A stretch of DNA of 64,000 nt from Bryobacterales bacterium (GTDB lineage Bacteria; Acidobacteriota; Terriglobia; Bryobacterales; UBA6623): assembly GCA_965219585.1 (NCBI GenBank), contig CBDCOA010000003.1:2001375-2065374 (forward strand), in the 5' to 3' direction. The position numbers and the translations under genes are program-made. Every line of letters begins with the position of its first letter. The stretch's first letter is position 1. The notes below the pieces were generated by a model. That model did no database searches and was not told where the DNA came from. It saw only the letters and a program-made list of their open reading frames with translations. Below, one piece after another: positions 20,601-47,380 of this stretch.

Positions 20601-23600
20601 GAGAAGCCGAGTCCGCGCATCGACTGGGACGCGCTGCCGGTGGAGGTGGCCGCGGAGGCTAGGCGCTGGCCGGCGACGCCGGGCCGACCGGTGCGGGCGG
20701 GGGTGAGTTCGTTCGGGCTCTCGGGAACGAATTCCCACGTAGTGCTGGAGGCGCCCGATCGCGACGGGAAAGGCCCCAGGGACCGCGCAGCCACGGCAGA
20801 ATCTGAGAGTGGCGGATCGCGGGAGCGGCTGTTGCCGTTGTCGGGAAGGTCGCCGAGGGCGGTGCGGGAGCTGGCGGGCCGCTACCTGTCGTGGCTGCGA
20901 GACCGCGACGGCGAGGCATCGGGCGAGCAGGAGTCGCGGTCCCTGCTGGCAGACATGGCTTGGACGGCAGGTCTGGGCAGGAGCCATTTCGACCATCGGG
21001 CCGGACTGGTGTGCGCTGATCTCGCGGAACTGCGGTCCGGGCTGGAGGCGGTGGTCGCGGGCCGCGAGATCGCGCGGGCCGCCCACGGGCCGCAAGTGGC
21101 GTTCGTCTTCACCGGCCAGGGCAGCCAGTGGGGCGGCATGGGGCGCTGGCTGTACGAGCGGGAGCCGGTGGCGCGGGCCGTGCTGGAGCGCTGCGAGCAG
21201 GCCATGCAGGAGTTGCGCGGGGCGTCGCTGCTGGACGTGATGTTCGGGCGGCCGGGGGCGGCCGGGGATTTGGACGACACCGGCTGGACGCAGCCGGCGC
21301 TGTACGCGCTGGAGTGCGCGCTGGCGGCGCAGTGGGCCAGCGTGGGAGTGCGGCCGGCGGCGGTGCTGGGGCACAGCGTCGGGGAGATCGCGGCGGCGCA
21401 CGTGGCGGGAGTGTTCGGCCTGGAGGACGGCCTGCGGTTCGCGGCAGCGAGGGGCGAGTCGATGGGATCGCTGCCGGTGGAAGGGGAGGCGTCCGGGGCC
21501 ATGCTGGCGGTGTTCGCTCCGCAGCAGCGGGTGGCCGAGGCGCTGGCGGAGCACGGCGGAGGCGCGGCGGAAACGGGGCTGGGCGTGGCGGCGGAGAACG
21601 GCACGCACCGGGTGGTGAGCGGGCCGCGGGCCGCGCTGGAGGCACTGGCGGAGCGCTTCGAGCTGGCGGGAGTGCGGGTGGCACGGCTGAACACCAGCCA
21701 CGCATTTCACAGCGCCCTGATGGACCCGGCGCTGGACACCATCGAGGGGGCGCTGGAGGCCGTAGAGCTGGGGACGCCTGCGGTGCCGCTGGTCAGCAAC
21801 GTGACCGGCCGGGCGCTGCGCGCGGGCGAGCGGATGGACGGGGCGTACTGGCGGCGCCAGGCGCGGGAGCCGGTGGCGTTCGCGGCAGGCGTGGCGGCCT
21901 TGGCGGAGATTGGCGCGGGGCTGGTGGTCGAGATCGGCCCGCAAGCGGTCCTAGGGCCGTTGGTGGAGCAGGCGTGGCCGGCGGGGAACGGCGGCGGGTC
22001 CGGCTCCAAGCCGGCAGTGCTGGCGAGCCTGCGGCGGGAGGAGGGCGCGGCAGGCGGCTTCGCAGCGGCCGCGGCCGCTGCGTACGAAGCGGGCGCGGCT
22101 GTCCACTTCGAGGGCTTGTTCGCGGGCGAGAGCCGGCGGCGAATGTCCCTGCCGGGGTACCCGTTCCAGCGCGAGCGGTTCTGGGTCGAGCCGCCGAAGC
22201 GACGGATCGCGGGCGGCGGCCATGCGCTGCTGGGCGTGCGGCACGAGGCGGCACGAGGCGGGGTCACGTTCGAGACCGAGATGTACAGCTCGGACCCGGC
22301 GTGGCTGGAGGAGCATCGCGTCTTCGGCATGGTGGTCGCTCCGGGCGCCCTGTACGGCGTGATGGGCGTGGAGGTGGCAGCCACGCAGAGCGGCGCGGGC
22401 GCGGCGGCGCTGGAGGACCTGCAATTGCACGAGCCGCTGGTGTGGGACCAGGCGCGGCCGGATGGGGCGGCTGGCGGCGATGGGCGCAGCGTGCAGGTGT
22501 TCGTCGACGGCGCGGCGGGGTCCTCTGGCCGAGTCTTCGAGGTTTACAGCCGAGGGGGAGCGGAGAGCGCGTGGCGGTTGCACGCCACGGCACGCGTGCG
22601 GCGGGGCCAGGCGGACACGGGCCGGGCGATCGACCCGCAGTCCCTGCGGACGGGCTTGTCGGGCGTGGACTCGACGGATTTCTACCAGAGCATCGCTGAA
22701 AGAGGCATTGAGTACGGCCCGCTCTTCCGGGGGCTTGCGGCGGTCTGGACCGGGCCCGGGGAGGCCCTCGGCGAGGTGGTGCTCCCGCCGGAGGCAGGCC
22801 GGGACGGAATGTGGATGCACCCTGCCCAGCTGGATGCGTGCTTCCAGGTGGTTGGCGCCGCGGGAAGAGACAGCGGGGAGAGCGGCGCGGATACCTACAT
22901 ACCGTTCGGATGGGAGCGCTTGTGGCTTTCTGGCCCCCTGCCCGGGCAGCTGTTGTGCCACGCGCGAACACGGGAGGCCGGGCATGCCGCAGGTGCCGGT
23001 TCCGAGGCCGCCCAGACGCTGGTGGCTGATCTTGACCTGTACGACCAGCGGGGCATGCCGCTGGGCGGAGTCAGCGGGCTGGTTCTGAAACGGGCCACGC
23101 GGGCAGCGCTGCTCTCGGCCGTCGAAGGCGTGGACGACCTGCTGTACGAACTGGTGTGGCGGGAGCGGCCGCGGATCGGCGGGCCGCAATCAGCGGACTT
23201 CCTCGCGGCACCGGCTGCGGTGCGGGGACTCGCGGGGAGCTTTGCCGAGTGGCTTGCGGCGGGAGGCGTCCCGCTGGCGTCTTGGACCGCCTTGGAGGGC
23301 GGGCTGGAGCAGTTGTCACGCTCGTACGCCATGGCCGCCTTGGAGGCCTTGGGCTGGCGGCGCCGGAAGGGGTCGGTCGTGGACCCGTCGCGGTTGCGGA
23401 GGCAGCTGAAGGTGGTGGCCGACCACCGGAAGCTGTTCAGCCGCCTGCTGGGGATGCTGGCGGAGGCCGGGCTACTGCAGGCAAGGGCGGCGGATTTGCC
23501 GGGCTGGAGCGTGGCCGTCGGCGCGAGGGAGGACCTGCCGGAGGACCTCGTGGAACCGCGGGAGCTCGCGAGGCTGTTGCGCGAGCGGCATGCGCACGGC

Positions 23601-26600
23601 TCGGTCGAGCTTGGGCTGGTGATGCGCTGCGGCGAGGCGTTGGCGGACGTGCTGCGGGGCCGGGTCGATCCACGGGAGCTGCTCGGCGGCGATCATGCCG
23701 GGGCGCAGGGCGTGTACCGGGACGCTCCGGCCATGCGGGCCGTGCACCGCATGATGGGTGCGACGGTGGGGGCGCTGGTGGCAGGCCTGCCGGAGCAGCG
23801 GCGCCTGCAGGTGCTGGAGATCGGGGCCGGCACGGGGAGCGCGACGGCGGAGGTGCTGGCAGCGCTGCCGGAGGGGCGCTTCGACTACTTCTACACCGAT
23901 ATCTTGGCGGGCTGCTTCCCCGAAGCGCGGGAGCGGTTTGGCGCGGCGATTGAGTGCCGGGTGCTCGACATCGAGGAGGATCTGGCAATTCAGGGACTGG
24001 AGGCGCACCGATACGACCTGGTGGTCGCGGCCAACGTGTTGCACGCGACGCGGGACTTGGGGAAGGCCTTGGAGAATTGCCGGAAACTGCTGGCACCGGC
24101 GGGGCAGCTGGTGACGTTGGAGGCCTTCCAGGCGGCGGCATGGCGGGACTTGACCTTCGGTCTGGCAGAGGAATGGTGGTGGTCCTCAGATCGGTACCGA
24201 GGCGAGTGCCCGCTGGTGGGGGCGAGCGTGTGGCGGCAGGCCTTGGCGGATGCTGGCTTCGGCGAGGCGGAAGTGCTTGAGGGCGCTGTCGAGGACGCAG
24301 TCTGGCACGGGGTGATCGTGGCGCGAGGCCCGTTGGAAGTGGAGCAAGATCCGGGCCTGTGGGTACTGGCGGGAGACGCATCGCCAGCGGTTTGGGAATT
24401 GGCCGAGAAGCTGGCGGCTAGCAACCAAGCCGTGATCGTGGCAGGGCAGGCGGAGGAGCGTGATTCGGCACAGCCAGCAGGGGTCACGACGGCGTATGTG
24501 GACCCGACGAGACGAGAGGCTTGGCGGGCGCTGCTGGGCGACCCGCCGGCCGAGGCCCCGTTGCGGGGCGTGGTGCACTTGGGTGCGCTGGAGGGTCGCG
24601 GCGCGGCTGCCGCGACGCCGGAACTCGCCCAGGACGTGGCCCGTATCGGGGCGAGTGCACTGGCGCTCGTGCAGGGACTGCAGGATGCCCAGGCGAAGCT
24701 TCTGGATGGCGTGTGGTTCGTGACGCGGGGCGGCCAGGCGGTCGAGCGCGAGCGGGGCGGCCAGGTGGCGGGGTCGGCGCTGTGGGGCCTAGGCAAGACC
24801 GTGGGTCTGGAGGCGCCGCAGCTGCGTGCGCGGATGGTCGATCTCGATCCGCGGCTGCCGCTGCAGCTGGACGCGCTGGTGAGCGAGTTGCTGCACGCCG
24901 ACCCGGAGACGCATATCGCTCACCGAGGTGCGACGCGTCATGCGGCCCGGCTCGTGCGCGGCCCCCGGACGGGACGGCTGCGGCTGCCAGAGGAGGCCGG
25001 CTGGCGCCTGGCGCGAGACGCCGCCGGAGCCTTGGACGCGCTGAGAGTGGAGCCTGCCAGCCTGGCCGCGCCAGGAGCGGGAGAGATCCGCGCGTCGGTG
25101 ACCGCCGCTGGGCTCGATTTTCACGACGTCTTGTTCGCAATGGGGATCGCCGACCTGCAGAGCGAGCTGGGGGCGGAGTTCTGTGGTCACGTGACGGAGA
25201 CCGGCACGGGCGTGACCGCGGTGTCTGTCGGCGACCGGGTGGTCGGTCTTGCCGCGGGAGCCTTCGGCCCCGAGGTCGTCACCAGCGAGGAATTGGTTGC
25301 GAGGGCACCCGCCGGGCTGTCGGCGGCGGCCTTGGCAACCGTGCCGACGGCATTCTTGACGGCGGCACGGGGCTTCGAGCTGGCCGGCCTTGAGGCTGGC
25401 GACAGCGTGCTGGTGCATGCCGGAGCCGGGGCCGTGGGCATGGCAGCGATCCGGCTGGCCCAAGCGGCGGGTGCGGTGGTGATCGCGACGGCGAGCGATT
25501 CCAAGGGTGCCTACGCGCAGTCGCTGGGCGTGGAGCACGTGTTCGAAGGCCAGGCCACGGCATTCGCGCAGAAGGTGCTGGATGTCACCGGGGGAGCGGG
25601 TGTCGCGATCGTGCTGAACGGCGCGGCCGGGCCCGACTGCGTCGAGGCGAGCCTGTCGTGCCTTGCCCGGGACGGGCGGTTCGTCGAAACCGTCAGGGAC
25701 GGCTCGTGGAGCTCGGAGCAGATGGCAGCGGCCAGGCCGGACGTGGCCTATCACGCTCCGGCGATCGATCAACTCCTTGTCGATGAGCCCGGGCAGATCG
25801 GGACCCAGCTGCGGGCCTTGATGCGGCGCATGGAAGCAGGAGAGTTGGAGCCGCCGCTCTACAGCGCCTGGCCGGTGGCGGAGGCGGGAGCGGCAATGGA
25901 GCTCCTGCGGTCGGGGCGCACCGAGGGCAAGCTCGCGCTGATGCTGCCGCCGCTCGCGAGCGGGGGCCTGCGCGAGGACGGGACATATCTGGTGACGGGC
26001 GGGCTCGCGGGGATCGGTCGACTCGCGGCGGGCTGGTTGGCTGACAGCGGGGCGCGCTGGATCGTGCTGAATGGCCGACGGGAGCCTGATGCCGAGGCGA
26101 GAGCGGCAATCGCGTCACTACGGGAGCGGGGAGTCGATGTGCGCACGGAGTTGGCGGACGTGACCGACCCTGCGGCCGTGGACGCCATGCTGGAGCGCAT
26201 CGAAGCCACGATGCCCGCGCTGGCGGGAGTCATTCACAGCGCGGGCGTAATTTCAGACGCGTCCCTGGCCAACCAAGACTGGGAGCGGTTCGAAGGGGTG
26301 CTGGGGCCGAAGGTGCTCGGGGCCTGGCACCTGCACCGGGCGACCGCGAACCGAGACCTGGACCTGTTCGTGCTGTTCTCAAGCATCGCGGGCGTGCTCG
26401 GAAACCCCGGACAGGCGAACTACGCGGCGGCGAACGCGTTTCTGGACCAACTGGCGCGGCACCGGCGCTCGTTGGGTCTCGCGGGCCAGTCGATCGCTTG
26501 GGGACCTTGGTCAGTCACTGGCCAGGCAGAGGAGCTGCGTTCACGGCTTGCAGAGGGGATGGCAGCGGGCGGCGTGGGCTGGATCCGTCCGCGACGGGGC

Positions 26601-29600
26601 CTGCGGGCCTTGGACAGGCTGGTGCGCCAGGACGTGGTCAACGGGACTGTGCTGTCGGTTGACTGGCCGCAGTTCGCCTCTCGCTTGCCTGTCACGCTGC
26701 CCCAGCTGGAAGAACTGGTGGCAGCCGGGCCGGCTGCGCAGGACAGGGCCGCCAAGACGGACCTCGCGGAGCGCCTGAGAGCGGTTCCGGCCGGCGAGCG
26801 CGAGGGGCTGCTGAGCGGCTTCCTGCAGGCTGAGGTCCAGTCTGTGCTGCGGCTGGCGTCGCCGCCGGATCCGACGGCAGGGTTCTTCGATCTCGGCATG
26901 GACTCGCTGATGGCGGTGGAGCTGAGGAATCGCCTGAATCGGGAATTGGGCGGCGAGTACAAGGCCTCGAGCACGGCGATGTTTGATTTTCCCGACATCA
27001 AGAGCCTAGCCGGCCACTTGGCTGCGGAACTCGGGGAGATCGAGCCAGCCCCGATCGAGCGCAAACGGCCGCTGCCAGCGCAAGGACTGGACGGCGGCAT
27101 CGCGATCGTGGGAATGGCGTGTCGATTCCCGGGAGCGCAAGACCTGCCAGGATTCTGGCGCGAACTGGAGGCGGCCGAGTGCGCAGTGACGCCGGGCCGC
27201 CAGAATTCGACGGTGGGACCGACGGACGAGGACGTCGAGGGGCTGCTGGGCGAGGACGACGCTCGTCGTTGGGGGGCGTTCGTCGAGGAAATCGACAAAT
27301 TCGATGCGGAATTCTTCCGCATCGCGCCCGTGGAGGCCGAGCTGCTGGACCCGCAGCAGCGCCTGTTGCTGGAGACAAGCTGGCTGGCGCTGGAGGAGGC
27401 TGGAATTGACCCGGGCCGGCTGAAGGGCGGCCGCACGGGGGTCTATGCGGGGATCTTGAGCAACGACTACTCGGAGCTGATTGACCGGGCGGGCCGAACG
27501 ACTTCCGACCTGTACGTGGCAACCGGCAATGCGGGCAGCACGGCGATCGGGCGAGTGGCATTCGCGCTGGGGCTGGAAGGGCCGGCGATGGCCGTGGACA
27601 CGGCCTGCTCGTCTTCCTTGGTCGCGGTCCACCAAGCAGTTGTCGCCTTGGAAAGGGGCGAGGCGGACCTGGCGCTGGCAGGAGGCGTGAACGCGATCCT
27701 GACGTCGACCGGCAACGAGCTGTTGGCCAAGGGAGGAATGCTGGCGGCAGACGGGCGCTGCAAGACATTCGATGCGTCGGCGAACGGATATGTGCGGGGC
27801 GAGGGATGCGGGGTGGTCGTGCTGAAGCGCCTGCAGGAGGCGCAGGCGGACGGGGACCGCATCTGGGCGGTAATCCGAGGGTCGGCGGTGAATCAGGACG
27901 GGGCCAGCGCGGGCCTGACGGTGCCGAACGGGCCGGCCCAGGAACGGGTGATCGGAGAGGCGCTGGCGCGGGCAGGGCTGGAACCAGCGGACGTTGACTA
28001 CCTAGAGGCGCACGGGACCGGCACGGAGCTGGGGGATCCAATCGAGGTGCAGGCTGCGGCCGCAGCCTACGGGCCCGGACGAGCGCCGGATCGCCCGCTG
28101 TTGATGGGATCGGTGAAGACCAACATCGGCCATCTGGAGGCGGCGGCGGGCGTTGCCGGCCTGATCAAGGTCGCGCTGTCGATGGAGCACGGAGTGCTGC
28201 CGCGGCACTTGCATTTCGAGAAGCCGAGTCCGCGCATCGACTGGGACGCGCTGCCGGTGGAGGTGACCGCCGAGGCCAGGCGCTGGCCGACGACGCCGGG
28301 CCGGCCGGTGCGGGCGGGGGTGAGTTCGTTCGGATTCTCGGGAACGAATTCCCACGTAGTGCTGGAGGCGCCCGATCGCAACGGGAAAGGCCCCGTGGAC
28401 AGGTCAGCCACGGCGGAATCTGAGAGTGGCGGATCGCGGGAGCGGCTGTTGCCGTTGTCGGGAAGGTCGCCGAGGGCGGTGCGGGAGCTGGCGGGCCGCT
28501 ACCTGTCGTGGCTGCGAGACCGCGACGGCGAGGCATCGGGCGAGCAGGAGTCGCGGTCCCTGCTGGCAGACATGGCTTGGACGGCAGGTCTGGGCAGGAG
28601 CCATTTCGACCATCGGGCCGGACTGGTGTGCGCTGATCTCGCGGAACTGCGGTCCGGGCTGGAGGCGGTGGTCGCGGGCCGCGAGATCGCGCGGGCCGCC
28701 CACGGGCCGCAAGTGGCGTTCGTCTTCACCGGCCAGGGCAGCCAGTGGGGCGGCATGGGGCGCTGGCTGTACGAGCGGGAGCCGGTGGCGCGGGCCGTGC
28801 TGGAGCGCTGCGAGCAGGCCATGCAGGAGTTGCGCGGGGCGTCGCTGCTGGACGTGATGTTCGGGCGGCCGGGGGCGGCCGGGGATTTGGACGACACCGG
28901 CTGGACGCAGCCGGCGCTGTACGCGCTGGAGTGCGCGCTGGCGGCGCAGTGGGCCAGCGTGGGAGTGCGGCCGGCGGCGGTGCTGGGGCACAGCGTCGGG
29001 GAGATCGCGGCGGCGCACGTGGCGGGAGTGTTCGGCCTGGAGGACGGCCTGCGGTTCGCGGCAGCGAGGGGCGAGTCGATGGGATCGCTGCCGGTGGAAG
29101 GGGAGGCGTCCGGGGCCATGCTGGCGGTGTTCGCTCCGCAGCAGCGGGTGGCCGAGGCGCTGGCGGAGCACGGCGGAGGCGCGGCGGAAACGGGGCTGGG
29201 CGTGGCGGCGGAGAACGGCACGCACCGGGTGGTGAGCGGGCCGCGGGCCGCGCTGGAGGCACTGGCGGAGCGCTTCGAGCTGGCGGGAGTGCGGGTGGCA
29301 CGGCTGAACACCAGCCACGCATTTCACAGCGCCCTGATGGACCCGGCGCTGGACACCATCGAGGGGGCGCTGGAGGCCGTAGAGCTGGGGACGCCTGCGG
29401 TGCCGCTGGTCAGCAACGTGACTGGGCGGGCGCTGCGCGAGGGCGAGCGGATGGACGGGGCGTACTGGCGGCGCCAGGCGCGGGAGCCGGTGGCGTTCGC
29501 GGCAGGCGTGGCGGCCTTGGCGGAGATTGGCGCGGGGCTGGTGGTCGAGATCGGCCCGCAAGCGGTCCTAGGGCCGCTAGTGGAGCAGGCGTGGCCGGCG

Positions 29601-32600
29601 GGGAACGGCGGCGGGTCCGGCTCCAGGCCGGCGGTGCTGGCGAGCCTGCGGCGGGAGGAGGGCGCGGCAGGCGGCTTCGCAGCGGCCGCGGCCGCTGCGT
29701 ACGAGGCCGGCGCGGCTGTCCACTTCGAGGGCTTGTTCGCGGGCGAGAGCCGCCGGCGGGTGTCCCTGCCGGGGTACCCCTTCCAGCGCGAGCGGTTCTG
29801 GGTCGAGCCGCCGAAGCGACGGATCGCGGGCGGCGGCCACGCGCTGCTGGGCACGCGCCGCGACATGGTCGGCGGGGAAGTCACGTTCGAAACGCAGATG
29901 TTCGCTTCGGCCCCGGAGTGGCTGGGAGACTACTCGGTGCTCGGACTGATCGTGGTCCCCGGGTCCCTGTACGGAGCGGCGGCCGTGGAGACAGCGGGCG
30001 CGATGCCCGGAATGGCCGGGGTCGTGGTCGAGGACCTGCATGTGCAGGTGCCCATGCACTTCGCAGGCGAAGACGGGCACAGCGAGCCTGACGACCGCGG
30101 AAAGACCGTGCAGGTGGTCGTCAAGGACACGGAAGAATCGGCGGCTCGTCGCATGGAGCTCTACAGCCAAGGCCCGGAGGACACGTGGACGCTGCACGCA
30201 GCGGCACGGCTGGGGAGGCCTGCCGACCGTGTCGATTTGCCGGCTGCAGTGGACATTGAAGCGCGCAGGTCGGGGCTTTCGCCCAAGAGCGCGCCAGACA
30301 TCTACCGAGGTCTTGCCGCCACCGGCATCGAGTACGGAGAGGCACTCCGCAGCGTCGAGGCTGTTTGGTCGAGCCAAGGAGAGGCAGTGGCCGAAATTGC
30401 GCTCCCCGGCGGATTGGAGCCGATGGGGTCGTGGCTGCATCCGGCTCAAATCGAGGGCTTCTTCCAGCTAGCCGCCCTGTTGGCGAATGACACGGAGGGG
30501 GCGAGGCCGGGCGCGCTCATTCCTTCCGGATGGGAGCGGCTGTGGCTTGTCGGCCCCCTGCCGGAGCGCCTAGTTTGCTGCGCGCGGATGCGCGCCTCCA
30601 ACGGCGTGGGACTGCAGCGGGCCGGGGATTCCGGGGCCCAGGTTGCAGACCTTGACTTGTACGACCCCCGGGGCATGCCTCTGGGCGGGGTCAGCGGGCT
30701 GGCGTTGAAGCCGACCACGCGGGCAGCGTTGTTGTCTGCAGCCGGGGGCGTGGAGGACCTCTTGTACGAGGTCGTATGGCGGGAGCAACCTTGGGTGAGC
30801 GGGTTGCAATCGGCCGGGTTCCTGGCGGCGCCGAGCGCGGCCGGCGAACTCAGGGGAACCTTCATCGAGAAGCTTGAAGCGGAAGGTGCAGTCCTGGAGT
30901 CTTGGGAAGAGCTGCTGGGGGGGCTGGCGCAAGTGTCGCGGTCGTACGCCCTGGCGGGGATGGAGGCCTTGGGCTGGCATCGCGAGACAGGCGCGATTGT
31001 CGAGCCGGAGCCGTTGCGGAGGCAGCTGAGAGTAGTCGCGGACCACCAGCATCTCTTCCGGCGCCTGCTGGGGATGCTGGAGAAGGCCGGGGTGTTGCAG
31101 GCGCGGGAGACGGAATCCCCAAGCTGGGTGGTGACCGTTGGTTCAGGCGAGCCCTTGCCCGAGGGTGTGGCGCAGAATCCCCGGGCCTTGGCAGAGGGAT
31201 TCTTGGAGCGGCATCCGTCCGGATCGCACGAGATGAGTCTGCTAATGCGTTGCGGGGATGCGTTGGCGGACTTGCTGGCGGGGCGGGTGGAACCGCTGGA
31301 GCTGCTGTTCGGCGGTGAGTTTGCCGGACTGGCGGACTTGTACCACCACTCGCCGGGGATGCGGGCGGCGAATCGCATGCTCGGCGCCGCGGTCGGCTTG
31401 CTGGCGGCAGGCCTGCCAGAGGGACGGCGATTGCGGGTTCTGGAAGTGGGGGCCGGCACGGGCAGCGCCACGGCGGAGGCGCTCAAGGCTCTGCCGGCAG
31501 GTCGCTTCGAATACCTCTTCACGGATCTCTCGGCGGGGTTCTTCGCCGAGGCGGAAGAGCGCTTCGGCGCGACCGACGCGGGGATCGAGTACCGAGTGCT
31601 GAACATCGAGGCGGCCCCTGAAGGCCTGGGCCTGCCAGCGCACAGGCACGACGTGATCATTGCCGCGAACGTGCTGCACGCGACCCGGGACCTGGCCAAG
31701 ACGCTGGAGAATTGCCGGAGGCTGCTGGCGCCGGCAGGGCTGCTCCTGGCATTGGAGACCTTCCGCCCCCAGGAGTGGATGGACCTGACGTTCGGGGCGC
31801 TGGAGGGCTGGTCCCGCTTCTCGGACCAATACCGGAGCGAGCACGCAATGGCGGACGAGGGCGTGTGGCGGCAGGCCTTGGCGGACACCGGCTTCGGCGA
31901 GGTAGAGGTGCTGGAGGGCGGCGTCGGAGATGTGGTCTGGCAGGGGGTGCTCGTGGCGCGAGGGCCACTCGAGGTGGCCGACACGCCGGGCCTGTGGGTG
32001 CTGGCAGGAAACGGATCGGCAGCGGCCCAGGAGCTGGCCGGCCGACTGGCGACCCGCAACCAGACGGTGATCGTGGCGGGTCAGGGGACGATGCCCGAAG
32101 CGTCGCAGCATGCGCGCATCACGGCCGCCGACATGGACCCGGCGAAGCGGGAGGCCTGGCGTGCGCTGCTAGAGGGCCTGCCTGCCGAGGCCCGCTTGCG
32201 GGGCGTGGTGCACCTGGGGGCCTTGAACGAGCAAGGCAATGCGGTCACGACAGCCAAACTGGCGGAATGCACGACCCGCATCGGAGAGAGTGCGCTGGCT
32301 CTGGTGCAAGGGTTGCAGGACGCGGGGGCGGAGCCGCTCGACGGCCTGTGGTTCGTGACGCGGGGCGGCCAGGTCGTCAAGCGCGACCAAGGTGGCGAGC
32401 TGGCCGGGGCGATGCTCTGGGGCTTGGGCAAGGCGGTGGCCATGGAGGCGGACCAGCTGCGGCCCCGCATGGTGGATCTGGACCCGCGGGAGCCGGAGCC
32501 GATGGACAGGTTGGTGGATGAGCTGCTGCACGCCGACCGCGAGACGCACGTTGCTCACCGGGGCGCGGCCCGCTTTGCAGCCCGCCTCGTAAGCAGCGCC

Positions 32601-35600
32601 CGGACAGGACGCCTTGGCCTGCCAGGGGAGCCGGGCTGGCGCCTGACACGCGACACGGGCGGCGCGCCGGACGCCCTCAGGGTTGAGTCGGCCGGGCTGG
32701 CCGCGCCGGGTCCCGGCGAGGTCCGCGTGGCGGTGGCCGCGGCCGGGCTGAATTCTCACGACGTCCTGATCGCGATGGGCATCTCGGACCAGCACAGTCC
32801 GCTGGGCACGGAGTTCTGCGGCCAGGTGACCTCGACCGGCGCGGGCGTGACCGAGGTGTCAGCCGGCGACCGGGTGGTCGGCCTTGCCTCGGGAGCCTTC
32901 GGCCCGGAGGTCCTCGCAAGCGAGGAACTGGTCGCGAAGGCCCCCGACGGATTCCCGGCGGCGGCGCTGGCGGCGATCCCTGCGGCGTTTGTGACGGCCG
33001 AGCTGGCATTGGAACTGGGCGGCCTCGAGGCTGGCCACAGAGTGCTGGTGCACGCGCGGGAGGGGGATGTGGGCCTAGCGGCGGTCCAACTGGCGCGCGC
33101 GGCGGGCGCGGAGGTGCTTGCAACGGCAAGCACCGACATGCTTGCCTACCTGCGGTCGCTGGGTGTCGAGCACGTGTTCGACAGCCAAGCCACGGATCTC
33201 GGCCAGGAAGTGCTCGCGGCGACCGCGGGAGCCGGCGTCGGAATGGTGCTGAACAGCCTGGCGGAGCCGGGCTTCATCGAAGCGAGCCTGGCGTGCCTGG
33301 AGCAGGGCGGCCGGTTTGTCGAGATCGCGGGACGGGACACCTGGAGCGCCGAGCGGATGGCGGAGGCCAGGCCGGACGTGGGCTACCACGTGCTGGCCTT
33401 GGATCGGCTCGCGAGCGACGAGCCGGCGAGGGTGGGGACCCAGCTGAGGTCCGCGGTGCGGAGGATGGGAGCCCGCAAACTGGAGCCGCTGCCGCACAGC
33501 GCATGGCCGCTGGCGGAGGCAGGGGCAGCGATGGAGTACTTCCGGTCGGAGCGTCCCGTCGGCAAGGTGGTGCTGACGCTGCCGCGGCTGGCGACCGGGG
33601 GCCTGCGGGAGGACGGAACGTACCTGGTGACCGGAGGGCTGGCTGGGATCGGATTGCTGGCGGCCGACTGGCTGGCGGACTGCGGCGCGCGCTGGGTCGT
33701 GTTGAACGGCCGCCAAGAACCGGATGCCGAAGCGAAGCCGGCGATCGAGGCCCTGCGGAAGCTGGGAGTCGAAGTGCGCGTGGAGGTGACGGACGTGACC
33801 GACTCGGCGGCCGTGGACGGCATGCTGGAGCGGATCGAACGCACCATGCCGCCGCTGGCGGGAGTGATTCACAGCGCGGGGGTGCTCGCGGACGCCACCC
33901 TGGCCAACCAGGGCTGGGAACGATTCGAACGGGTGATCGGGCCGAAGGTGCTAGGGGCCTGGCACCTGCACACGGCAACCGCAGGCCGGGACTTGGACTT
34001 CTTCGTTCTGTTCTCGAGCATTGCGGGCGTGTTGGGAAACGCCGGCCAGGCGAACCACGCGGCGGCCAACGCGTTTCTGGACCAGTTGGCGTGGCATCGG
34101 CGGTCGATGGGCCTAGCGGGCCAGTCGATTGCGTGGGGGCCTTGGTCGGAGGTTGGCGAGGCCGAGGAACAGCGTGCGCGGATCGCGGAGCGCTTGGCAG
34201 CGAGCGGCGTGGGATGGATCGTTCCGCGCCGAGGCCTGCGAGTGCTCGACAGTCTCGTGCGGCGGGACGTGGTGTGCGCGACTGTGCTGTCGGTGGATTG
34301 GTCTCAGTTCGCGTCCCACCTGCCTGCCACCCTGCCACTGCTGCGAGAACTGGTGGCTCCGAGGGCCGGTGGACGGGGTGTGGCCGCCAAGGTCGACCTC
34401 GTCGAGCGCCTCAGAGCGGTGTCGGCTCGCGAGCGCGAACGGCTCTTGGCCGGCTTCCTGCAGGGCGAGGTTCAGGCCGTCCTGCGGCTGGCTTCCCCGC
34501 CCGAGGTGACCTCCGGGTTCTTCGACCTTGGGTTGGACTCGCTGATGGCCGTGGAACTGGGGAATCGTCTGAACCGGGCGTTCGGCGGGGAGTACAAGCC
34601 CACGAGCACGGAGGTGTTTGACTTTCCCGACATCAAGAGCCTGGCCGGACACTTGGCGGCAGCGTTCGGGGAGATCGAGGAAGCCCCGGCCGGGCCGGAA
34701 CGGCCGGTCCCGACGCTAGGACAGGAGGGCGGCATCGCGATCGTGGGCATGGCGTGTCGATTCCCGGGAGCGCGGGACCTGTCGGCATTTTGGGATGAAC
34801 TGGCCGGGGCCGGATGCGCAGTGACGCCGGGTCGCCAGGGTTCGTCGGTGGGGCCCTCGGAAGGGGATTTTCCGGAACAAGTGGGCGAACAGGACGCTCG
34901 TCGCTGGGGGGCGTTCGTCGACGAGATCGACCTGTTTGACGCAGAGTTCTTCCGCATCGCGCCCGTGGAGGCAGAGGTGCTGGACCCGCAACAGCGGATC
35001 TTGCTGGAGACGAGTTGGCTGGCGCTGGAGGAGGCGGGGATCGACCCGGGCCGGCTGAGAGGCGGCCGCACCGGCGTGTACGTGGGGATTGCGACCAACG
35101 ACTATTCGGAGGTGATTGAGCGAGGGGGGCGAAGGACGGGCGATTTGTACGTGGCGACCGGGAATTCGGGCAGCACTGCAATCGGGCGAGTGGCATTCTC
35201 GCTCGGGCTGGAAGGGCCGGCGATGGCCGTGGACACGGCCTGCTCGTCTTCCCTGGTCGCACTCCACCAAGGGGTGGCGGCGTTGGAGCGGGGCGAGGCG
35301 GACTTGGTGCTGGCGGGAGGGGTGAACGCGATCCTGACGCCGACCAGCACCGAACTGCTGGCCAAGGGGGGGATGCTGGCGCCGGACGGCGTGTGCAAGG
35401 CATTCGATGCGGCGGCAAATGGGTTCGTGCGAGGCGAGGGATGCGGGGTCGTGGTGCTGAAGCGTCTGCGGGAAGCGGAGGCGGACGGGGACCGCATCTG
35501 GGCTGTGATCCGGGGTTCGGCGGTGAACCAGGACGGGGCCAGCGCGGGCCTGACGGTGCCGAACGGGCCGGCCCAGGAGCGGGTGATCGGACAGGCGCTG

Positions 35601-38600
35601 GCGCGGGCAGGGCTCGAGCCGGCAGAAGTCGACTACCTAGAGGCGCACGGCACCGGGACGGAACTGGGGGATCCGATCGAGGTGCGGGCCGCTGCTGCGG
35701 CCTACGGGCGTGGCAGGGCGGCGAATCGACCTCTGTTGATGGGATCGGTGAAGACAAACATCGGCCACCTGGAAACGGCGGCGGGAATCGCCGGGCTGAT
35801 CAAGGTGGTGCTGTCGATGGAGCACGGAATGTTGCCGAAGCACCTGCATTGCCGGCAGCTGAATCCGCGCATCGACTGGGACGCGCTGCCCGTGGAGGTG
35901 ACAACGGAGGCCCGGCCGTGGCCGGCTTCGCCGGACCGACCGGTGCGGGCGGGAGTGAGTTCCTTCGGATTCTCCGGAACGAATTCGCACGTGGTCTTGG
36001 AAGCCCCCGAGAGTCACCGTCGCGGGCATGGCCCCTTGATGCCGATCGCCGCGGCGCAGGCTGGAACCGGCGGTCCCCCGGAGCCGCGCGGGAAGCGGCT
36101 CTTGCCGCTCTCCGGGAAGTCTTCGCTGGCGGTGCGGGAGTTGGCGGGCCGCTACCTGTCTTGGCTGGAGAGCCGGGGCGGCGTGCTGGGCCAGGGGGAA
36201 GAGTCGGAATCGCTGCTGGCCGACATGGCGTGGACGGCGGGAGCCGGCAGGAGCCACTTCGAGCACCGGGCCTCGGTGGTGTTCGGGGACCTATCGGAAC
36301 TGCGGGCCGCGCTGGAGGAGCTGGCCGCGGACCGGGAGATCGCGCGCGCAGCCCAAGAGCCGCAGGTAGCTTTCGTGTTCACGGGCCAAGGCAGCCAGTG
36401 GGCTGGCATGGGGCGCTGGCTGTACGAGCGGGAGCCGGTGGCACAGGCAGTGCTGGACCGCTGCGAAAAGGTAATGCAGGAATTGCGGGGAGCGTCCCTG
36501 CTGGAGGTGATGTTCGGGCAGCCGGGAGCGGCCGGGGATTTGGACGACACCGGATGGACGCAGCCGGCGCTGTACGCGCTGGAGTGCGCGCTGGCGGCAC
36601 AGTGGGCGAGCGTCGGACTGTCTCCGGTGGCCGTGCTGGGCCACAGCGTGGGAGAGATCGCGGCGGCGCAAGTGGCGGGGGTGTTCGAGCTGGAGGACGG
36701 TCTGCGGTTTGCGGCGGCGAGGGGCGAGTTGATGGGATCGCTGCCGGTGGACGGGCCGGAGGCAGGGGCCATGCTGGCGGTGTTCGCCTCGCCGCAGCGG
36801 GTGAGTCAGGCGCTGGAGGAGCACGCTGCGGGCGATGACGGATCGGGGCTGAGCCTAGCGGCGGAAAACGGGACGCACCGCGTGGTCAGCGGGCCGTTGG
36901 AGGAGGTGGAGACACTGGCAAAGCGCTTCGAGCAGGCGGGAGTGCGGGTGGCGCGGCTGAACACGAGCCACGCGTTCCATAGCACCCTGATGGACCCAGT
37001 GCTGGACGACATCGAGGAGGCGCTGGAGGCAGTGACCCTGGGTTCGCCCGCAGTAGCCTTGGTGAGCAACGTCACGGGCCGGGCGGTGCGCGAGGGCGAG
37101 CGGCTGGACGGGGCGTACTGGCGGCGGCAGGCGCGCGAGCCGGTAGCCTTCGCGGCCGGCGTACAGGCACTGGCGGAAATCGGCGTCGATGTAGTCGTCG
37201 AGATCGGCCCGCAGGCGATCTTGGGGCCGTTGGTCGAGCAGGCGTGGCCGGCCGAGAGCAGCGACGGAGCGGTTTCGGGACCGAGAGTGGTGGAGAGCCT
37301 CCGACGGGAGGCGGGCGGGGCGAACGGCTTCTCCGCAGCCGTGGCCGGCGCATATGAGGCCGGGGCGGCGATCAGCTTCGAGGGCCTGTTTGCCGGCGAG
37401 ATCAGGCGAAGGGTGCCCCTGCCCGGCTACCCGTTCCAGCGGAAGAGGTTCTGGATTGAGCAAGGCAAGCGCAAGGTGACCGAAGAGGGCCATGCGCTGC
37501 TGGGGGCGCGGCGCGACTCGGCACGAGGCGGGATGGCGTTCGAGACGGACCTGCACGCCACGGACCCGGCTTGGCTGGCAGATCACCGGGTGTTCGGCAT
37601 GGTAGTGGCGCCGGGTGCCTTGTACGGGGTGCTGGGGGTGGAAGCGGCAGCGACGACCGGCGGAACCGATGCAGTGGTGCTGCAGGACCTACAGTTGCAC
37701 GAGCCTATGATATGGCTCGAAGAGCCGGAGGATGGGCCGCCTGCCGGCGAGGGGCGCACCGTGCAGGTGTTCGTGGACGGAGCGGAGGGATCTTCAGGCC
37801 GGCTCTTCGAGGTCTACAGCCAAGGCAGCGGGGAGACTGCGTGGCAGTTGCACGCCACGGCGCGCGTGGAGCGGGGCGAGGCGGGCACGCCCGAAGCGAT
37901 CGGCCTGGGGGCACTCAGGGAGACCCTGTCGAGGGTGGACTCGACCGACTTTTACCGGAGCATCAGGAGGCGAGGCATTGTGCACGGTCCCGCCTTCCAG
38001 GGGCTGGCGGCCATCTGGTCCGGCCCGGGGGAGGCCATCGGCGAGGTGGTGCTCTCATCGCAGGCAGGTCCTGGCAGGTTGTGGATGCATCCGGCGCAGC
38101 TGGATGCGTGCTTCCAGGTGGTCGTCGCCACCGTAAGGGACGCCGAAGAGTTCGATTCAGACACCTACATGCCCATCGGATGGGAGCGCATGTGGCTTGC
38201 GGGCCCCGTGCCGGAGCGGATGTTCTGCCATGCGCGGTTGCTTGAGAGGCCCGATGCAGGTACCCCGGGTCCCGGGCCCGCCGAAGTGTTGGTTGCGGAA
38301 CTTGGGCTGTACGACATGCAGGGCGCGGCCCTGGGCGGAGTCAGGGGACTGGTGCTGAAACGCGCGACGCGTGCCGCGCTGGTGTCCGCCATCGAAGGCG
38401 TGGAGGACCTGCTGTACGAGACGGCGTGGCGGAAACAGCCCCGGGCAGGCAGACAGCGGGCAGCCGATCTCCCAGCGGCACAGGCCGGGTTGGAGCAACT
38501 CAGGGGCAGCTTTGCCGAGAGCCTTGCGTCGGAAGGCGTACCGCCGGAGGCTTGGTCCGCCCTGCATGAGGATCTCGACCGGTTGGCACGGTCATACGCC

Positions 38601-41600
38601 ATGGCAGGGCTGGAAGCCTTGGGCTGGCGGCGCGAGAAGGGTGCGGTCGTAGATCTGTCCCTGGCGCAAGAGCAGCTGAAGGTCGTGGGGGACCACCGGA
38701 GACTGTTCGGGCGGATGCTCGCCATGCTGGCCGAGGCCGGGGTCTTGCAGGCGGAGGCGGAGGGCACCCCGGGCTGGGCGGTGGCCGTCGGCGCGGACGA
38801 CGACTTGCCAGAAGGACTGGCGTCGGAACCTGGGGCCGTCGGGGCGCGGCTGCTGGAGCGGCATGCACACGGCGCGCACGAGCTGGGCGTGCTAATTCGC
38901 TGCGGGGAGACGCTAGCGGACGTGCTGCGGGGCCACGCGGATCCGCTAGAAGTGCTGTCCGGCCCCGAAGGTGCCGGGCTGGCGGACATCTACCGGCACG
39001 CACCGGGGATGCGCGCGGCGAACCGTATGGTCGGCAAGACGGTGGCAGCGCTCGTGGCGGGCCTGCCCAAGGGCCGTCCTTTGCGGGTGCTCGAGATCGG
39101 GGCCGGCACGGGCAGCACGACGGCGGAGGTGCTGGCAGTGCTGCCGGCGGGTCGATTCAGCTATGTCTGCACGGACAGCTCCCAGAGTTGCCTCGCAGAG
39201 ACAGAGGCGCGATTCGGTGCGGGAGTCGAGTCCCGGGTGCTGGACATCGAGGCGGACCCGGCAGGCCAGGGGCTGGAGCCGCACCGATACGACCTGGTGA
39301 TCGCGGCGGACGTGCTGCACGCAACACGGGACCTCGGGAAGACACTGGAGCATTGCCGGAGGCTGCTGGCGCCGGCTGGGCACTTGGTGGTGCTGGAGTC
39401 CCTGCGCCCGCAGGCATGGCGGGACCTGACGTTCGGGTTGATGGAGGGTTGGTGGCGATTCGCGGACCCGTACCGGGACGATCAAGCCTTGGCGGGAGCG
39501 AGCGCGTGGCGGCAGGCGTTGGAGGAATCGGGCTTCGGTGACGTGGAAGTGCTGGAGAGCGGCGCGGAGGACACGGCCTGGCAAGGGGTGATCGTAGCGC
39601 GGGGCCAATTCGAAGCGGAGGAAGAGCCGGGCGTGTGGGTGCTGGCCGGAGGGGCTTCAGCGCTGGCTCAGGAGCTGGCCGAGAAGCTGGAGACACGCAA
39701 TCAGGCGGTCGTCTTGGCGAGGCACGACACGGACCAACTGGCAGGAGTCACGACGGCGTATGTGGACCCGACGAGGCGAGAGGCCTGGAGCTCGCTGCTG
39801 GCGGATCTGCGCAGCGAGGCCCCTCTGCGAGGCGTGGTGCACCTAGGCGCCCTAGAGGGCCACGGAGCAACGGCGACGACGCCGGAACTGGCACAAGACA
39901 TGGCCCGGATCGGGGAGGGGGCTCTGGCGCTGCTCCAGGGGCTGCAGGACGTGGGGGCTGAGCCCCTGGAAGGCATGTGGTTCGTTACGCGGGGTGGCCA
40001 AGTGGTCGAGCGCGAGCGAGGCGGCCAATTGGCAGGGGCGACGCTGTGGGGCTTGGCTAGGGCGGTGGCGCTGGAGGCACCGCAGTTGCGCTTGCGCATG
40101 GTCGATCTCGATCCGCGGGCACCGCTCCAGGCGGACTCGCTGCTAGACGAATTGCTGGATGCCGACCGGGAGACGCTCGTGGCTCACCGAGGCGCCACCC
40201 GCCATGCAGCGCGGCTCGTGCGGGCCGCCCGGACGGGCCGCCTGCGGCTGCCGGAGGAGGCGGGTTGGCGCCTTGCCCCGGGCACCGGCGGAAGCCTGGA
40301 TGACCTGAGGGTAGAGCCCGCAGGCCTGCCCGCACCGGGAGAAGGCAAGATCCGCGCATCCGTGAGCGCGGCAGGACTCAACTTCTACGACGTCTTGTCC
40401 GCAATGGGGGTTGTCGATCTGTACAACCCCCTGGGCGCGGAGTTCTGCGGTCGGGTAATCGCGATCGGTCCGGGCGTAACCTCAGTGGCAGTTGGAGACC
40501 GGGTGGCCGGCCTCGCCGCGGGAGCCTTCGGCCCCGAGGTTGTCACGAGCGAGGAACTGGTCGCGAAGTCGCGTTCCGGCTTGCCGGCGGCGGCGCTGGC
40601 AACCGTGCCGACGACTTTCCTGACAGCGGCCATAGCTTTCGAGCTGGCCGGCCTCCAAGCCGGCGACCGGGTGCTAGTGCACGCCGGGGCCGGCGGTGTG
40701 GGCTTGGCGGCAATCCGCTTGGCCCAGGCTGGCGGCGCGGAGGTGATCGCGACGGCGAGCAGCTGGAAGCGCCCGTATCTGCGGTCGCTGGGCGTGCAGC
40801 ACGTGTTCGACAGCCGAACCACGGCCTTCGGCGAGAAAGTTCTGGCGGTTACCGGGGGAGCGGGCGTCGAGGTCGTGCTGAACAGCCTGACGGGCCCGGG
40901 ATTCATCGAGGCGAGCCTTGCGTGCCTGGGCCAGGGCGGCAGGTTCGTCGAGATCGCCAAGCGCGACATCTTCAGCGCGGAGCAGATGGCGGCGGCCAGG
41001 CCAGATGTCGACTACCACATCCTGGCGCTCGATCAACTCGTGATCGATGAGCCGGAGAGAGTCGGAACACAGCTGCGGGCGTTGATGGATCGGATCGACT
41101 CCAAGGATTTGGAGCCGCTCCCGCACAGCGCATGGCCCCTAGCGGAGGCGAGCGCGGCGATGGAGCACATGCGGTCGGCGCGCCATGTGGGCAAGATTGT
41201 GCTGACGCTGCCGTCGCTGGCGTCCGGCGGGCTGCGGGGGAACGGCACGTATCTGGTGACGGGCGGCCTAGCTGGGATTGGACGACTGGCGGCGACCTGG
41301 CTGGCTGACAACGGGGCGCGCTGGATCGTGCTGAACGGCCGGCGGGAGCCCGACTCCGAAGCCGGCGCAGCAATCGCGGCGCTGCGGGAGCGGGGAGTCA
41401 CGGTGCAGGTGGAACTGGCGGACGTGACCGACTCCGCTGCCCTAGACTCCATGCTAGAGAGGGTCGAGGCTGCGATGCCGCCGCTGGCAGGGGTGATTCA
41501 CAGCGCGGGGGTAATCGCCGACGCATCGCTGACCAACCAAGACTGGGGGGGATTCGAGCGAGTCTTGGAGCCGAAAGTGCTTGGGGCCTGGCACCTGCAC

Positions 41601-44600
41601 AGGGCGACGGCGGACCGGGACTTGGATCTGTTCGTGATGTTCTCGAGCATTGCTGGCGTGCTGGGGAATGCAGGTCAGGCGAACTACGCGGCGGCGAACG
41701 CGTTTCTGGACCAGTTGGCGCGGCACCGGCGGTCGGTGGGATTGGTCGGCCAAGCGATCGCGTGGGGGGCTTGGTCGGAAGTGGGCGAAGCAGAAGAGCG
41801 GCGTGCTCGGATCGCGCAGCAGTTGGCGGCGGCCGGCCTGGGCTGGATCACGCCGGAACGTGGCCTGCGTGTCTTCGACAAGCTGCTGCGGCAAGACTTG
41901 GTTGCCCCGGCAGCGGTCTCGATGGACTGGCAACGGTTCGCAGCCCTTCTGTCAGCGGACCAGCCCCTGCTGGACGAGCTTGTGGACTCCAAGCCCGTAG
42001 CAGAGGAGACAGCCCCAACGCTCGATCTCAGGAACCGTCTGCGAGAGGCGTCGCCCGGGGATCGCGAAGCCCTGCTAATGGAAATCGTGCAGGGCGAGGT
42101 CCAAGCGGTCCTGCAGCTTGCCTCACCCCCAGACCCGGCCGTCGGCTTCTTCGATCTCGGCATGGATTCGTTGATGGCGATTGAGCTGACGAACAGGTTG
42201 AACAGGTTGTTGACTGGCGAGTACCGGCTGGCTAACACCGCCGTGTTTGACCATGTCGACATCGCGAGCCTCGCACGACACCTGGCCGTGGAACTGCGTG
42301 TCGTTGAAGATGAGAGCCCGGAACCCGAACGGGCCGCGGCCCGCAGGCCGGAGGATGGCGGGATCGCTGTAGTCGGAATGGCGTGCAGGTTCCCGGGCGG
42401 GCAGGACCTGTTCAGGTTCTGGCAACAGCTCGAGGACGGGGGCAGCGCAATCACGGCGGAACGGCCAGGGGATCTCTGGGTCCATGCTGTCAGCGATTCC
42501 AAGGCGAGCTCTTCAGTCCGAGAAGCCGGTCGTTGGGGAGCGTTCATCGACGGGATCGACCAGTTCGATCCCGGCTTCTTCCGGATCACACCGATCGAGG
42601 CAGAGGGGATCGATCCGCAGCACCGGCTGCTGTTGGAGACAAGCTGGCACGCGCTAGAAGACGCAGGGATTAATCCCGGCTCTCTGCGTGGCCGCCGAGC
42701 CGGGGTTTTCGTGGGGATTTCAGGCAGCGAGTACAAGGATCTGATCCAGGCAAGCGAGAGCGACTTCTTCGATATCACGGCCCTGGAAGGGAACAGTACG
42801 AGCACTGGGGTCGGCCGCGTCGCGCACTTCCTCGGCCTCGAGGGTCCGGCAATGCCCGTGGACACGACGTGCTCTTCGTCGTTGGTGGCACTGCACCAGG
42901 CTTCGGCGGCACTGCGCTTGGGAGAAGCCGACCTGGCGCTGGCGGGGGGCGTGAACGCGATTCTCTCGAAGCGTGCGACCTACGGGATGGCCGGAGTGGG
43001 ACTGCTGTCGAATGACGGGCAGTGCAGGGCCTTCGATGCCTCGGCCAACGGATACGTGCGAGGAGAGGGCTGCGGCATGGTGGTCCTGAAGCGCCTGGCT
43101 GACGCAAAACGCGACGGGGACCCAATCTGGGCAGTGATCCGAGGATCGGCCGTGAACCACAACGGGGGCGGGGCGGGCCTGACCGTGCCGAACCTTGGGG
43201 CGCAGAGTCGGCTGCTCAGGGAAGCGCTCGCGAGCGCCGGGTTGGAGCCCCCCGACGTGGACTATCTTGAGGCACATGCGACGGGGTCGCTGCTTGGGGA
43301 CTCAGTCGAGTTGCAGGCCGCAGCCGAGGTGTACGGGGCGGGACGATCTTCCGACAGACCCCTGCTGCTGGGGTCCGTGAAGTCGAACATTGGGCACTTG
43401 GAGGCCGCTTCCGGCGTGGCTAGCCTGATCAAGGTTGTCCTAGCGATGCAGCGGCGGACCATTCCCAGGCACCTGCACTTCCGCGAGCCAAGCCCTGAGA
43501 TCGATTGGGGAAACTTGCCAGTGAAGGTCACGTCGGACGAAACTCCGTGGCTTTCGGCACAGCCTGGCTGCCCCTTGAGGGCAGGCATCAGTTCCTTCGG
43601 GCTCTCGGGCACAAACGCACACGTGCTCGTCGAGAGTTGCCAAACGACGGGCACCCATTCCGAGCGGGCGGCGCTCTCCGTGGCAGTCCCGATGCACTCT
43701 TCCGCGGGCTCAGAAACCACGGAGGGATCGTTCCGGGAGCGGGAGACAAGGCTGCTGCCGCTGTCGGGGCGGTCCGCGAGGGCGGTCCGCGACCTAGCCG
43801 GCCAATACTTGTCTTGGCTCGAACAGAATGCGGAGCGGCCAGCCGCGGAACACGAGGGTTCGGACCCGCCTGCCACCAGTGCAGACGCTGCCTCGCTGCT
43901 TGCGGACATGGCGTGGACGGCGGGAGTGGGCCGGAACCACTTTGGCCATCGGGTGGGATTGGTGTTCGGAAGTGCCGACGAACTGCGGGAAAGGTTGACA
44001 GCATTGGCAAGTGCGCGCGACGCCGCCCACTTTGCCGGACGTGCACCGAGTGTGGCATTTGTGTTTGCGGGCCAAGGCAGCCAGTGGCCAGCCATGGGGA
44101 GGGCACTCTACGAGAGAGAGCCAGACGGGCGGGCGATCTTGGAGCGCTGTGACCGGGTTATGCGGAAAGTGCGCGGGGTATCGCTGGTGGATGCGATGCT
44201 CGGTCGGCCAGGTGCCGCCGACGATCAGGGCGATCCGCTTTGGGCGGAACCGGGGCTGTACGCGGTGGAGTGTGCGCTGGCGGCCCTGTGGGAGAGGGTG
44301 GGGGTACGACCAGTCACGGTGCAGGGACACGGCGTGGGCGAGTTGGCGGCGGCCAAGGTTGCCGGAGTGTTCGGCCTGGAAGACGGCCTGCGACTCGCAG
44401 CGGCGCGGGGTGCGCTGAGTAGTTCCTTGCCCACAACAGGTCCGCGCGCCGGAACCCTCCTAGCCGTCTCCGCTCCCATGGAACGCTTGGAGACTGCCTT
44501 GGGCGCGCTGAATTCCGATTCAAGTCACGCTGGGCCGAGCGTGGTGTTGGATTCCGGGACACACCGCCTAGTCCATGGACCGGTGGCGGACATGGAACGG

Positions 44601-46931: not shown

Positions 46932-47380
46932 GGGGCAGTTGTATCAGAAATGAGGCCCCGGGGCACATCGTACCACTTCGGGCACAGCGGCTTGGTCGCC
47001 GATCAGCAGAGGGCCGGCCGAGCGAGGAACACCAGCGGAGCGATTGGAGTTGAGGATCGAGGCTTGCTTGCGAATCCAGACAGACAAGTCGTTGGGCAAG
47101 GCAACCGTGCCTAGCGACAATTGTTCATGTCGGCGTGTTGCCTCATCTCCGGATGTTCTCTGGATTCCCATCGTCGGCAACTCGCTGTGAATGGAAAGGT
47201 CTTGGGGAAATTCTTGGGCACGGGTCGAAGTGCCGCGCCAAATCATCGACGGCGGGCGATTTGGAGAATTGCTCTTTCCACCACGCCGAGCGCTTCGTAC
47301 TGGCTCGAGGCCCTCGGAGAGCCCCGCTGTGCGGCCGCGTACGCCTGCCGGCTGACCGGGCGGCATGTTGATTGAGCCCA

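Follow-up and report, generated by a model that had tools for sequence, protein, structure and literature searches.

Dehydratase (DH) domains that have lost their catalytic histidine are already known from modular polyketide synthases (PKSs). In the demurilactone PKS, DHs with a His to Tyr replacement are found in modules 6 and 8, the very positions at which hydroxyls remain in the product (PMC9673147), and further natural His-loss DHs have been reviewed, together with DH-like domains that have new activities, which keep the His and change the Asp (PMC7327777). Here, a DH is described from a giant cis-acyltransferase (AT), C-methyltransferase (cMT)-containing modular PKS, most of which lies in a 64,000-nucleotide stretch of DNA (the window, to which all coordinates refer) from an uncultured soil Bryobacterales (Acidobacteriota) bacterium. 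The DH of module E in this PKS, DH E, has Tyr at the His site and Glu at the Asp site of the catalytic dyad, and is likely to be a catalytically inactive, structurally maintained domain (DH0) that probably leaves a beta-hydroxyl on the chain. Such a call is routine and not surprising in itself, His to Tyr DH0 domains being of a known kind, and it helps product prediction; the cluster is uncharacterised, and literature searches yielded no account of it, nor of any sulfotransferase-associated PKS from an acidobacterium.

The first PKS open reading frame (ORF) enters at the left edge of the window and ends at 11698, and the second (11691-45158, plus strand; 11,155 codons) runs without a stop or frameshift. 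Pfam and motif scans give KS-AT-DH-cMT-ER-KR-ACP as the repeated module plan (KS, ketosynthase; ER, enoylreductase; KR, ketoreductase; ACP, acyl carrier protein). The module letters are those of an earlier sequence-only reading of the window; B belongs to the first ORF, and C, D, E, and F belong to the second. HAFH, the signature of the ATs in this PKS, is taken to denote malonyl specificity, and the methyl branches are therefore expected to come from the cMT domains. DH E and its four signature motifs are located as follows.

29838-30740, plus strand: DH domain of module E, a full-length double hotdog, at residues ~6050-6350 of the 11,155-residue ORF product.
29931-29933, plus strand: Tyr6081 (TAC) at the catalytic His site of HxxxGxxxxP, in the motif YSVLGLIVVP (29931-29960).
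30324-30353, plus strand: GIEYGEALRS, by motif comparison a degenerate GYxYGPxF (Pro to Glu and Phe to Leu).
30453-30455, plus strand: Glu6255 (GAG) at the catalytic Asp site of DxxxQ/H, in HPAQIEGFFQ (30438-30467).
30516-30542, plus strand: LIPSGWERL, by motif comparison an altered LPFxW (Phe to Ser).

In the alignment of the five modules, the first dyad motif is DYSVLGLIVVP in module E and (D/E)HRVFG(M/L)VVAP in B, C, D, and F, the decisive codon being TAC in E and CAC or CAT in the paralogues. Likewise, the second is AQIEGFFQ in E and AQLD(A/G)C(F/I)Q in the others. Paralogues and 144 relatives retain strings like YGPxF and PFGW where module E has IEYGEALR and IPSGW, so that all four DH signature motifs are altered and none of the features expected of a competent DH (the His of HxxxGxxxxP, the Asp of DxxxQ/H, GYxYGPxF, and LPFxW) is present in DH E. 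The sequence-only reading had called this DH dead from the two dyad motifs, which are exact in the translation and in the alignment at codons 29931-29933 and 30453-30455, and had asked whether the Tyr and Glu truly lie at the dyad positions. When DH E was compared with all PDB chains by phmmer, the curacin DHs were the best matches (E=1.4e-15 for CurF); Tyr6081 aligns with the catalytic His of CurF (HHQVFGKVLFP, 3kg6) and Glu6255 with its catalytic Asp (HPALLDAAFQ), and the same holds for CurK (3kg9/5tz5). Both substitutions therefore sit on the dyad, and with two more motifs altered and the demurilactone precedent the call of a dead DH is well supported.

The domain is nevertheless full length. 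Both halves of the DH profile are matched above threshold, PKS_DH_N (PF21089) at 38.2 bits (cut-off 27, profile positions 1-103) and PS-DH (PF14765) at 69.3 bits (cut-off 23.7, positions 10-164), with a total (69+38 bits) that is the lowest of the five DHs in the window, the others reaching 157-175. Across the 30 columns that are at least 80 % conserved among 144 DH domains, six are changed in DH E, including the His, the Asp and its preceding Leu, and the Phe of YGPxF, as against 0-2 in its paralogues; the DH of module B is divergent, yet retains 30 out of 30. An AlphaFold2 model built from a 30-sequence alignment gives a confident double hotdog (pLDDT 88.7, pTM 0.89), while a 5-sequence alignment gave an unusable model (pLDDT 50.8). 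The former model is placed by Foldseek at TM 0.8-0.89 to the DHs of CurK, CurF, CurH, and a MAS-like PKS, and by this prediction DH E has the double-hotdog fold.

The DHs of curacin CurF, CurH, CurJ, and CurK (3kg6-3kg9) are thus the best sequence and fold matches, although they are active His/Asp enzymes with just 20-25 % identity to DH E. Inactive curacin mutants are named in PDB titles (CurK H996F, 5tz5; CurJ H978F, 5tz6; CurK D1169N, 5tz7), and in these structures the fold remains intact when either residue of the dyad is lost. Ratios of nonsynonymous to synonymous substitution (dN/dS, Nei-Gojobori) for DH E are 0.44 against C, 0.49 against D, and 0.37 against B, compared with 0.36-0.43 for pairs of intact DHs; all are rough, because dS is near saturation. 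Mean identity to 139 DHs from outside the window is 32.3 % for E, 34.4 % for B, and 35-37 % for C, D, and F. These comparisons suggest a faster divergence of DH E that is real but modest, and indicate that the domain is not freely decaying and is kept under purifying selection. It combines the features of a DH0, namely fold (from prediction) and length kept, dyad His lost, and purifying selection.

The closest precedent is the demurilactone PKS (PMC9673147), in which DH_M6 has DYRVLG where module E has DYSVLG, a full-length DH is kept, GYxYGPxF and LPFxW are degenerate, and an ER has a damaged NADPH motif, HAPTGDVGAA. It differs in being a Streptomyces PKS without cMT, in which inactivity is backed by the structure of the product, whereas in module E the Asp is also replaced, by Glu, and the ER and cMT are kept. 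Retention of a dead DH for another purpose also has a parallel in TerB (PMC8251887), a PKS-like protein with inactive DH and cMT that mediates protein interactions, its dead DH being retained for a structural or interaction role; TerB, however, is fungal and acts in trans, as the partner of an iterative PKS, rather than being a bacterial in-module domain. In this PKS family a DH precedes the cMT in 45 out of 48 cases, as would fit a DH kept for architectural reasons, and this near-constant order may be why DH E persists as a folded spacer. In related metagenomic PKSs, the other Tyr-variant DHs belong to cMT modules without an ER: P0052 is DH-cMT-KR, and a tblastn search of the contig carrying P0024 (contig L003) with module E passes directly from psiKR to KR. 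The lack of an ER is expected if the enoyl intermediate is never formed.

With Tyr in place of the general-base His and Glu in place of the general-acid Asp, syn-elimination of water would be lost. Module E would then pass on a 2-methyl-3-hydroxyacyl chain, with a D-hydroxyl from its B-type KR, and its ER would be left without a substrate. The motifs on which this depends downstream of the DH are the following.

33051-33074, plus strand: ER NADPH-binding motif of module E from the motif scan, HAREGDVG (canonical HAAAGGVG).
34044-34070, plus strand: KR active-site motif of module E, GQANHAAAN, with His for the catalytic Tyr; LAD, of the B-type, lies at 33870-33902.

The catalytic Tyr of the KR is replaced by His in four of the six modules (A, B, C, and E) and is present in D and F. 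Among 150 related metagenomic PKS proteins there are 10 modules with both cMT and ER; every one of them has a His-type KR, with the DH dyad intact and the ER motif canonical, and the ER modules without cMT have a KR with Tyr. The His-type KR therefore looks like a conserved, cMT-linked KR subtype, and a review also describes this Tyr as 'sometimes replaced by histidine' in KRs (PMC7327777). From the comparative data and the review the His-type KR is taken as active, leading to the predicted 2-methyl-3-hydroxy unit; the comparative data favour activity and are no proof of it.

The ER motifs are more variable. Those of A (HAAAGGVG) and F (HAGAGGVG) are canonical, D has GAVG, B and C have GDVG, and HAREGDVG of E is the most deviant of the six, while almost all ERs of related PKSs have GGVG. 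Because four of the six are off GGVG, and the inactive demurilactone ER has HAPTGDVGAA, some of the 'fully reducing' modules may leave double bonds. Extra decay of the ER in E relative to C was considered and rejected, with dN/dS of 0.39 against 0.29-0.34 elsewhere.

Several points weigh against an inactive DH E that leaves a hydroxyl. Retention of the beta-hydroxyl requires an active His-type KR in module E. The ER of E is no more degenerate than that of C (8 and 8 unique substitutions); the cMT-ER-KR block of E is C-like, and gene conversion from C probably refreshes the block, which can explain an undecayed ER. A neighbouring DH can reportedly dehydrate in place of a missing one, as is said of epothilone module 4/5. 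His to Phe replacement left dehydration in two of six monensin modules (PMC7327777). Finally, Tyr/Glu is a conservative pair that recurs in three unrelated DHs, and may have been selected rather than being the result of simple loss.

The alternative that survives best follows from this last point: Tyr and Glu may be a selected alternative active-site pair, either with chemistry retained or with side chains that pair to plug and stabilise an empty site. The chemistry could be a slow or changed dehydration, alpha-epimerisation, reactions of double bonds or rings, or action on a gem-dimethylated intermediate without an alpha-proton. Among 208 DHs scored at both sites, three of the five Tyr variants (module E, P0024, and P0092) also have Glu, whereas Glu accompanies His in 4 out of 198 (Fisher p=2e-4). 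The three Tyr/Glu domains are 36-41 % identical to one another and each has closer His/Asp relatives, therefore the pairing arose repeatedly. P0024 shares the Phe to Leu change in YGPxF, purifying selection acts on DH E, and the cMT region of module E has 16 unique substitutions where that of its sister module C has 4. However, one C-to-T transition suffices to turn His into Tyr, and where the Asp is replaced it is most often by Glu (7 out of 11), so that mutation bias with structural constraint can yield the pairing. In addition, Tyr-variant DHs correlate with retained hydroxyls in the characterised demurilactone pathway, the other Tyr-variant modules are without an ER, and the known neofunctionalised DH-like domains keep the His.

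Glu can act as the acid in FabZ. The FabZ-type His/Glu dehydratases, and the DH-like enoyl isomerases and pyran synthases, resemble DH E in having a hotdog with a non-canonical dyad, but they keep the catalytic His; enoyl isomerases and pyran synthases are recognised by a kept His with a replaced Asp, and DH E, being without the His, does not fit. A selected alternative pair is considered unlikely, and it is just as doubtful that Tyr/Glu is a recurrent selected state in the DHs of cMT modules, with at least three origins, whether as a plug for an architectural DH or as a new activity on alpha-methylated or gem-dimethylated intermediates.

P0024 (contig L003, 3015-6203), P0092, P0052, and P0126 are metagenomic PKS fragments with Tyr at the DH His site, none of them close to DH E or to one another. 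P0024 was rejected as an orthologue of DH E (bootstrap 0, 41 % identity), being nearer to the His/Asp domain P0022, and several frame changes within one module of L003 make the quality of its sequence doubtful. The 16 positions in the cMT of module E, where all other modules agree, lie in 31437-32100 and include VLDIEAD to VLNIEAA and EGWWRF to EGWSRF; the SAM-binding GAGTG and NVLHAT are intact.

Returning to DH E as an inactive domain, its origin can be read from the boundaries within module E, which is a mosaic of three segments.

28416-29852, plus strand: KS-AT linker, AT, and post-AT linker of module E, with 14 mismatches to module D.
29853-30656, plus strand: divergent island with ~55-60 % nucleotide identity to each paralogous module, from sliding identity and change points.
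30657-34400, plus strand: DH C-terminus, cMT, psiKR, ER, and KR of module E, with 84-92 % nucleotide identity to module C.

Upstream of these, the KS of module E is 85-90 % identical in nucleotide sequence to those of D and F. Within the AT region, 28416-29422 is 100 % identical over 1007 nucleotides to 20799-21805 of module D, explained either by gene conversion that took place very recently in this strain or by a collapse of the assembly consensus. Mismatch between E and D rises from 1.6 % to ~43 % at 29852/29853, and the maximum-likelihood change point is 29853 (likelihood-ratio statistic 446), bearing out the abrupt loss of module D identity at nucleotide 29852, on the AT/DH junction, that had been seen by eye. 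The right edge is softer, with the change point against C at 30657, and the ~800-nucleotide island corresponds to the DH domain less its last ~30 residues.

Such a domain-sized island with an abrupt left boundary, ~55 % nucleotide identity to every other module, and a slightly lower GC content at third codon positions (GC3; 0.79 against 0.83 for the ORF) could have entered the cluster from elsewhere, through recombination with another PKS or horizontal transfer. An exhaustive HMMER search of 1.84 billion cluster representatives gave 1042 matches at E<=1e-10, the best at 43-47 % identity and none above 47 %, and the closest known DHs to DH E are its paralogues in the window (protein identity to B 45 %, C 50 %, D 47 %, F 44 %). 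In neighbour-joining trees of the five window DHs with the 25 closest outside DHs, the five came together in 68 % of bootstraps. The GC3 of DH E is within the range of the other DHs (0.77-0.84, with 0.77 for module B), as is its codon usage, both matching the DH of module B. DH E therefore shows neither closer outside relatives nor deviant composition, the marks of horizontal acquisition. The intact DH of module B is equally divergent, so that old paralogy with homogenisation of C, D, and F needs no donor, and a conversion tract would be expected to end abruptly on reaching non-homologous sequence. Import is a little less probable again than a selected Tyr/Glu pair.

The sequence-only reading had described DH E as phylogenetically foreign and as resembling the DH of B rather than those of C, D, and F, and neither description holds. 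Nucleotide identity of E to C equals or exceeds that to B in every window of a sliding alignment, and B+E (bootstrap 43) is recovered no better than E with C, D, and F (47). GEVTFE, TVQVVV, and TWTLHA, the strings shared by B and E, are the consensus of unrelated database DHs, and are therefore ancestral states lost by the C/D/F clade. That clade, half of the split which a DH tree had been proposed to confirm, is secure (bootstrap 100), but its members are not near-identical as had been claimed, their amino acid identities being 78 %, 65 %, and 63 %; E+P0024 has a bootstrap of 0. On these comparisons neither a foreign nor a SPECIFICALLY B-like origin of DH E is supported, and neither is demonstrable. 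The simplest history would be old paralogy, with C, D, and F homogenised later and B and E not.

DH E would thus be an old paralogue in the cluster's own DH clade, outside the gene conversion that homogenises its neighbours, lying between an AT that matches that of module D and a cMT-ER-KR block that resembles that of module C. It may have been spared because heteroduplex would stop where homology ends, or because overwriting by an active DH would change the product. Extension module 2 of mycolactone MlsA1 (PMC2569948) is a comparable case, with a recombining assembly line, domain-sized swapped blocks, homogenised modules, and an apparently inactive DH and ER kept beside sequence identical to that of other modules. 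There, the domains are 97-100 % identical and the inactive DH has few changes, whereas the dead DH of module E is deeply diverged (~55 % nucleotide identity) and homogenisation is patchier (63-100 %). For PKS evolution, module E is a clean example of a domain-sized island resisting concerted evolution on both flanks.

Less probable still is a loss of function and ongoing decay of module E or of the entire assembly line, with the dead DH a symptom that has no meaning for the product. The PKS ends in KS-AT0 without an ACP or thioesterase (TE), its stop at an AT/DH junction, four of the six ER NADPH motifs deviate from GGVG, four KRs are without the catalytic Tyr, and DH E is more derived than the four other DHs. 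Set against these are the uninterrupted 11,155-codon ORF, conserved in three strains or metagenome-assembled genomes (MAGs), strain changes that are mostly synonymous (60 synonymous to 38 on the nonsynonymous side, over 14.8 kb), and dN/dS of 0.15-0.45 in all domains. His-type KRs are, moreover, conserved across many unrelated PKSs in cMT+ER modules whose DH and ER are intact, consistent with the replacement noted in review (PMC7327777).

That the AT/DH junction is a metagenome assembly chimera caused by the 1-kb block identical in D and E is very improbable, since, although a 1007-nucleotide perfect repeat lies directly upstream and one MAG contig (L001) starts at 29433, exactly at the repeat edge, because assemblers break at repeats, a second (L002, JAJDZN010000329) is colinear with 25974-40740 at 99.3 % identity and crosses both repeat and junction with its own single nucleotide differences (six inside the D/E-identical block), therefore the junction is not taken as an artefact, and the reading frame is unbroken with the flanking domain order of a normal module.

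If DH E is inactive, it marks the one position where oxygen is expected to survive on an otherwise reduced, methyl-branched chain. The elements that bear on the fate of this hydroxyl lie at the end of the line.

42363-45158, plus strand: terminal KS-AT0, with the KS Cys present (DTTCSS) and the AT Ser replaced by Gly (GHGVG), and without an ACP or TE.
45651-46931, plus strand: discrete sulfotransferase gene (PF13469), ~450 nucleotides after the PKS, a candidate user of the hydroxyl.

The terminal AT has GHGVG for GHSxG and RASHG for HAFH, and the ORF stops six codons past the post-AT linker YPFQRERYWV. Because the terminal KS-AT0 lacks an ACP and TE, module F would be the last extender, placing the module E hydroxyl at C5 of the ACP-bound chain. 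With the sulfotransferase gene following the PKS, sulfation or release by delta-lactone formation would most obviously involve this hydroxyl; it could be sulfated by the adjacent enzyme or close a delta-lactone, and either fate is plausible, in line with the sequence-only reading. Module E would be the only oxygenated position, which assumes active His-type KRs in A, B, C, and E. This gives a concrete expectation of mass and structure for metabolomics or heterologous expression.

The closest solved structures to the sulfotransferase are chains 2z6v and 2zq5. The possibility that the PKS continues, in a shifted frame, into the sulfotransferase ORF was considered and rejected, the intervening frames having many stops and no domain matches. 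GC content falls from ~0.70 to 0.53 at 46000-48000, around the sulfotransferase, which may be a separately acquired tailoring gene. The stop of the terminal KS-AT0 falls at the same type of AT/DH junction as that where D/E identity breaks. The next gene (47381-48769, minus strand) has faint NCBIfam matches only, to an SDR-family oxidoreductase (PRK05855) and a bifunctional enol-lactonase/decarboxylase (PcaDC).

A scan of GTDB genomes found the same locus in two MAGs only, both labelled Bryobacterales bacterium (Acidobacteriota), at 99.3-99.4 % nucleotide identity, and no relative of the locus was found in a scan of JGI metagenome contigs. The two MAGs differ from DH E by just 2-3 changes, and at this identity they are too close to inform on conservation of the Tyr and Glu or on lineage-specific dN/dS. 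Just past the cluster, at 50597-54405, are PSCyt2/PSD1 (DUF1549/DUF1553) and DUF1501 genes. The PSCyt2/PSD1 gene pair is typical of Planctomycetota and Solibacter-like Acidobacteria, and these downstream genes are compatible with the Bryobacterales origin of the matching MAGs.

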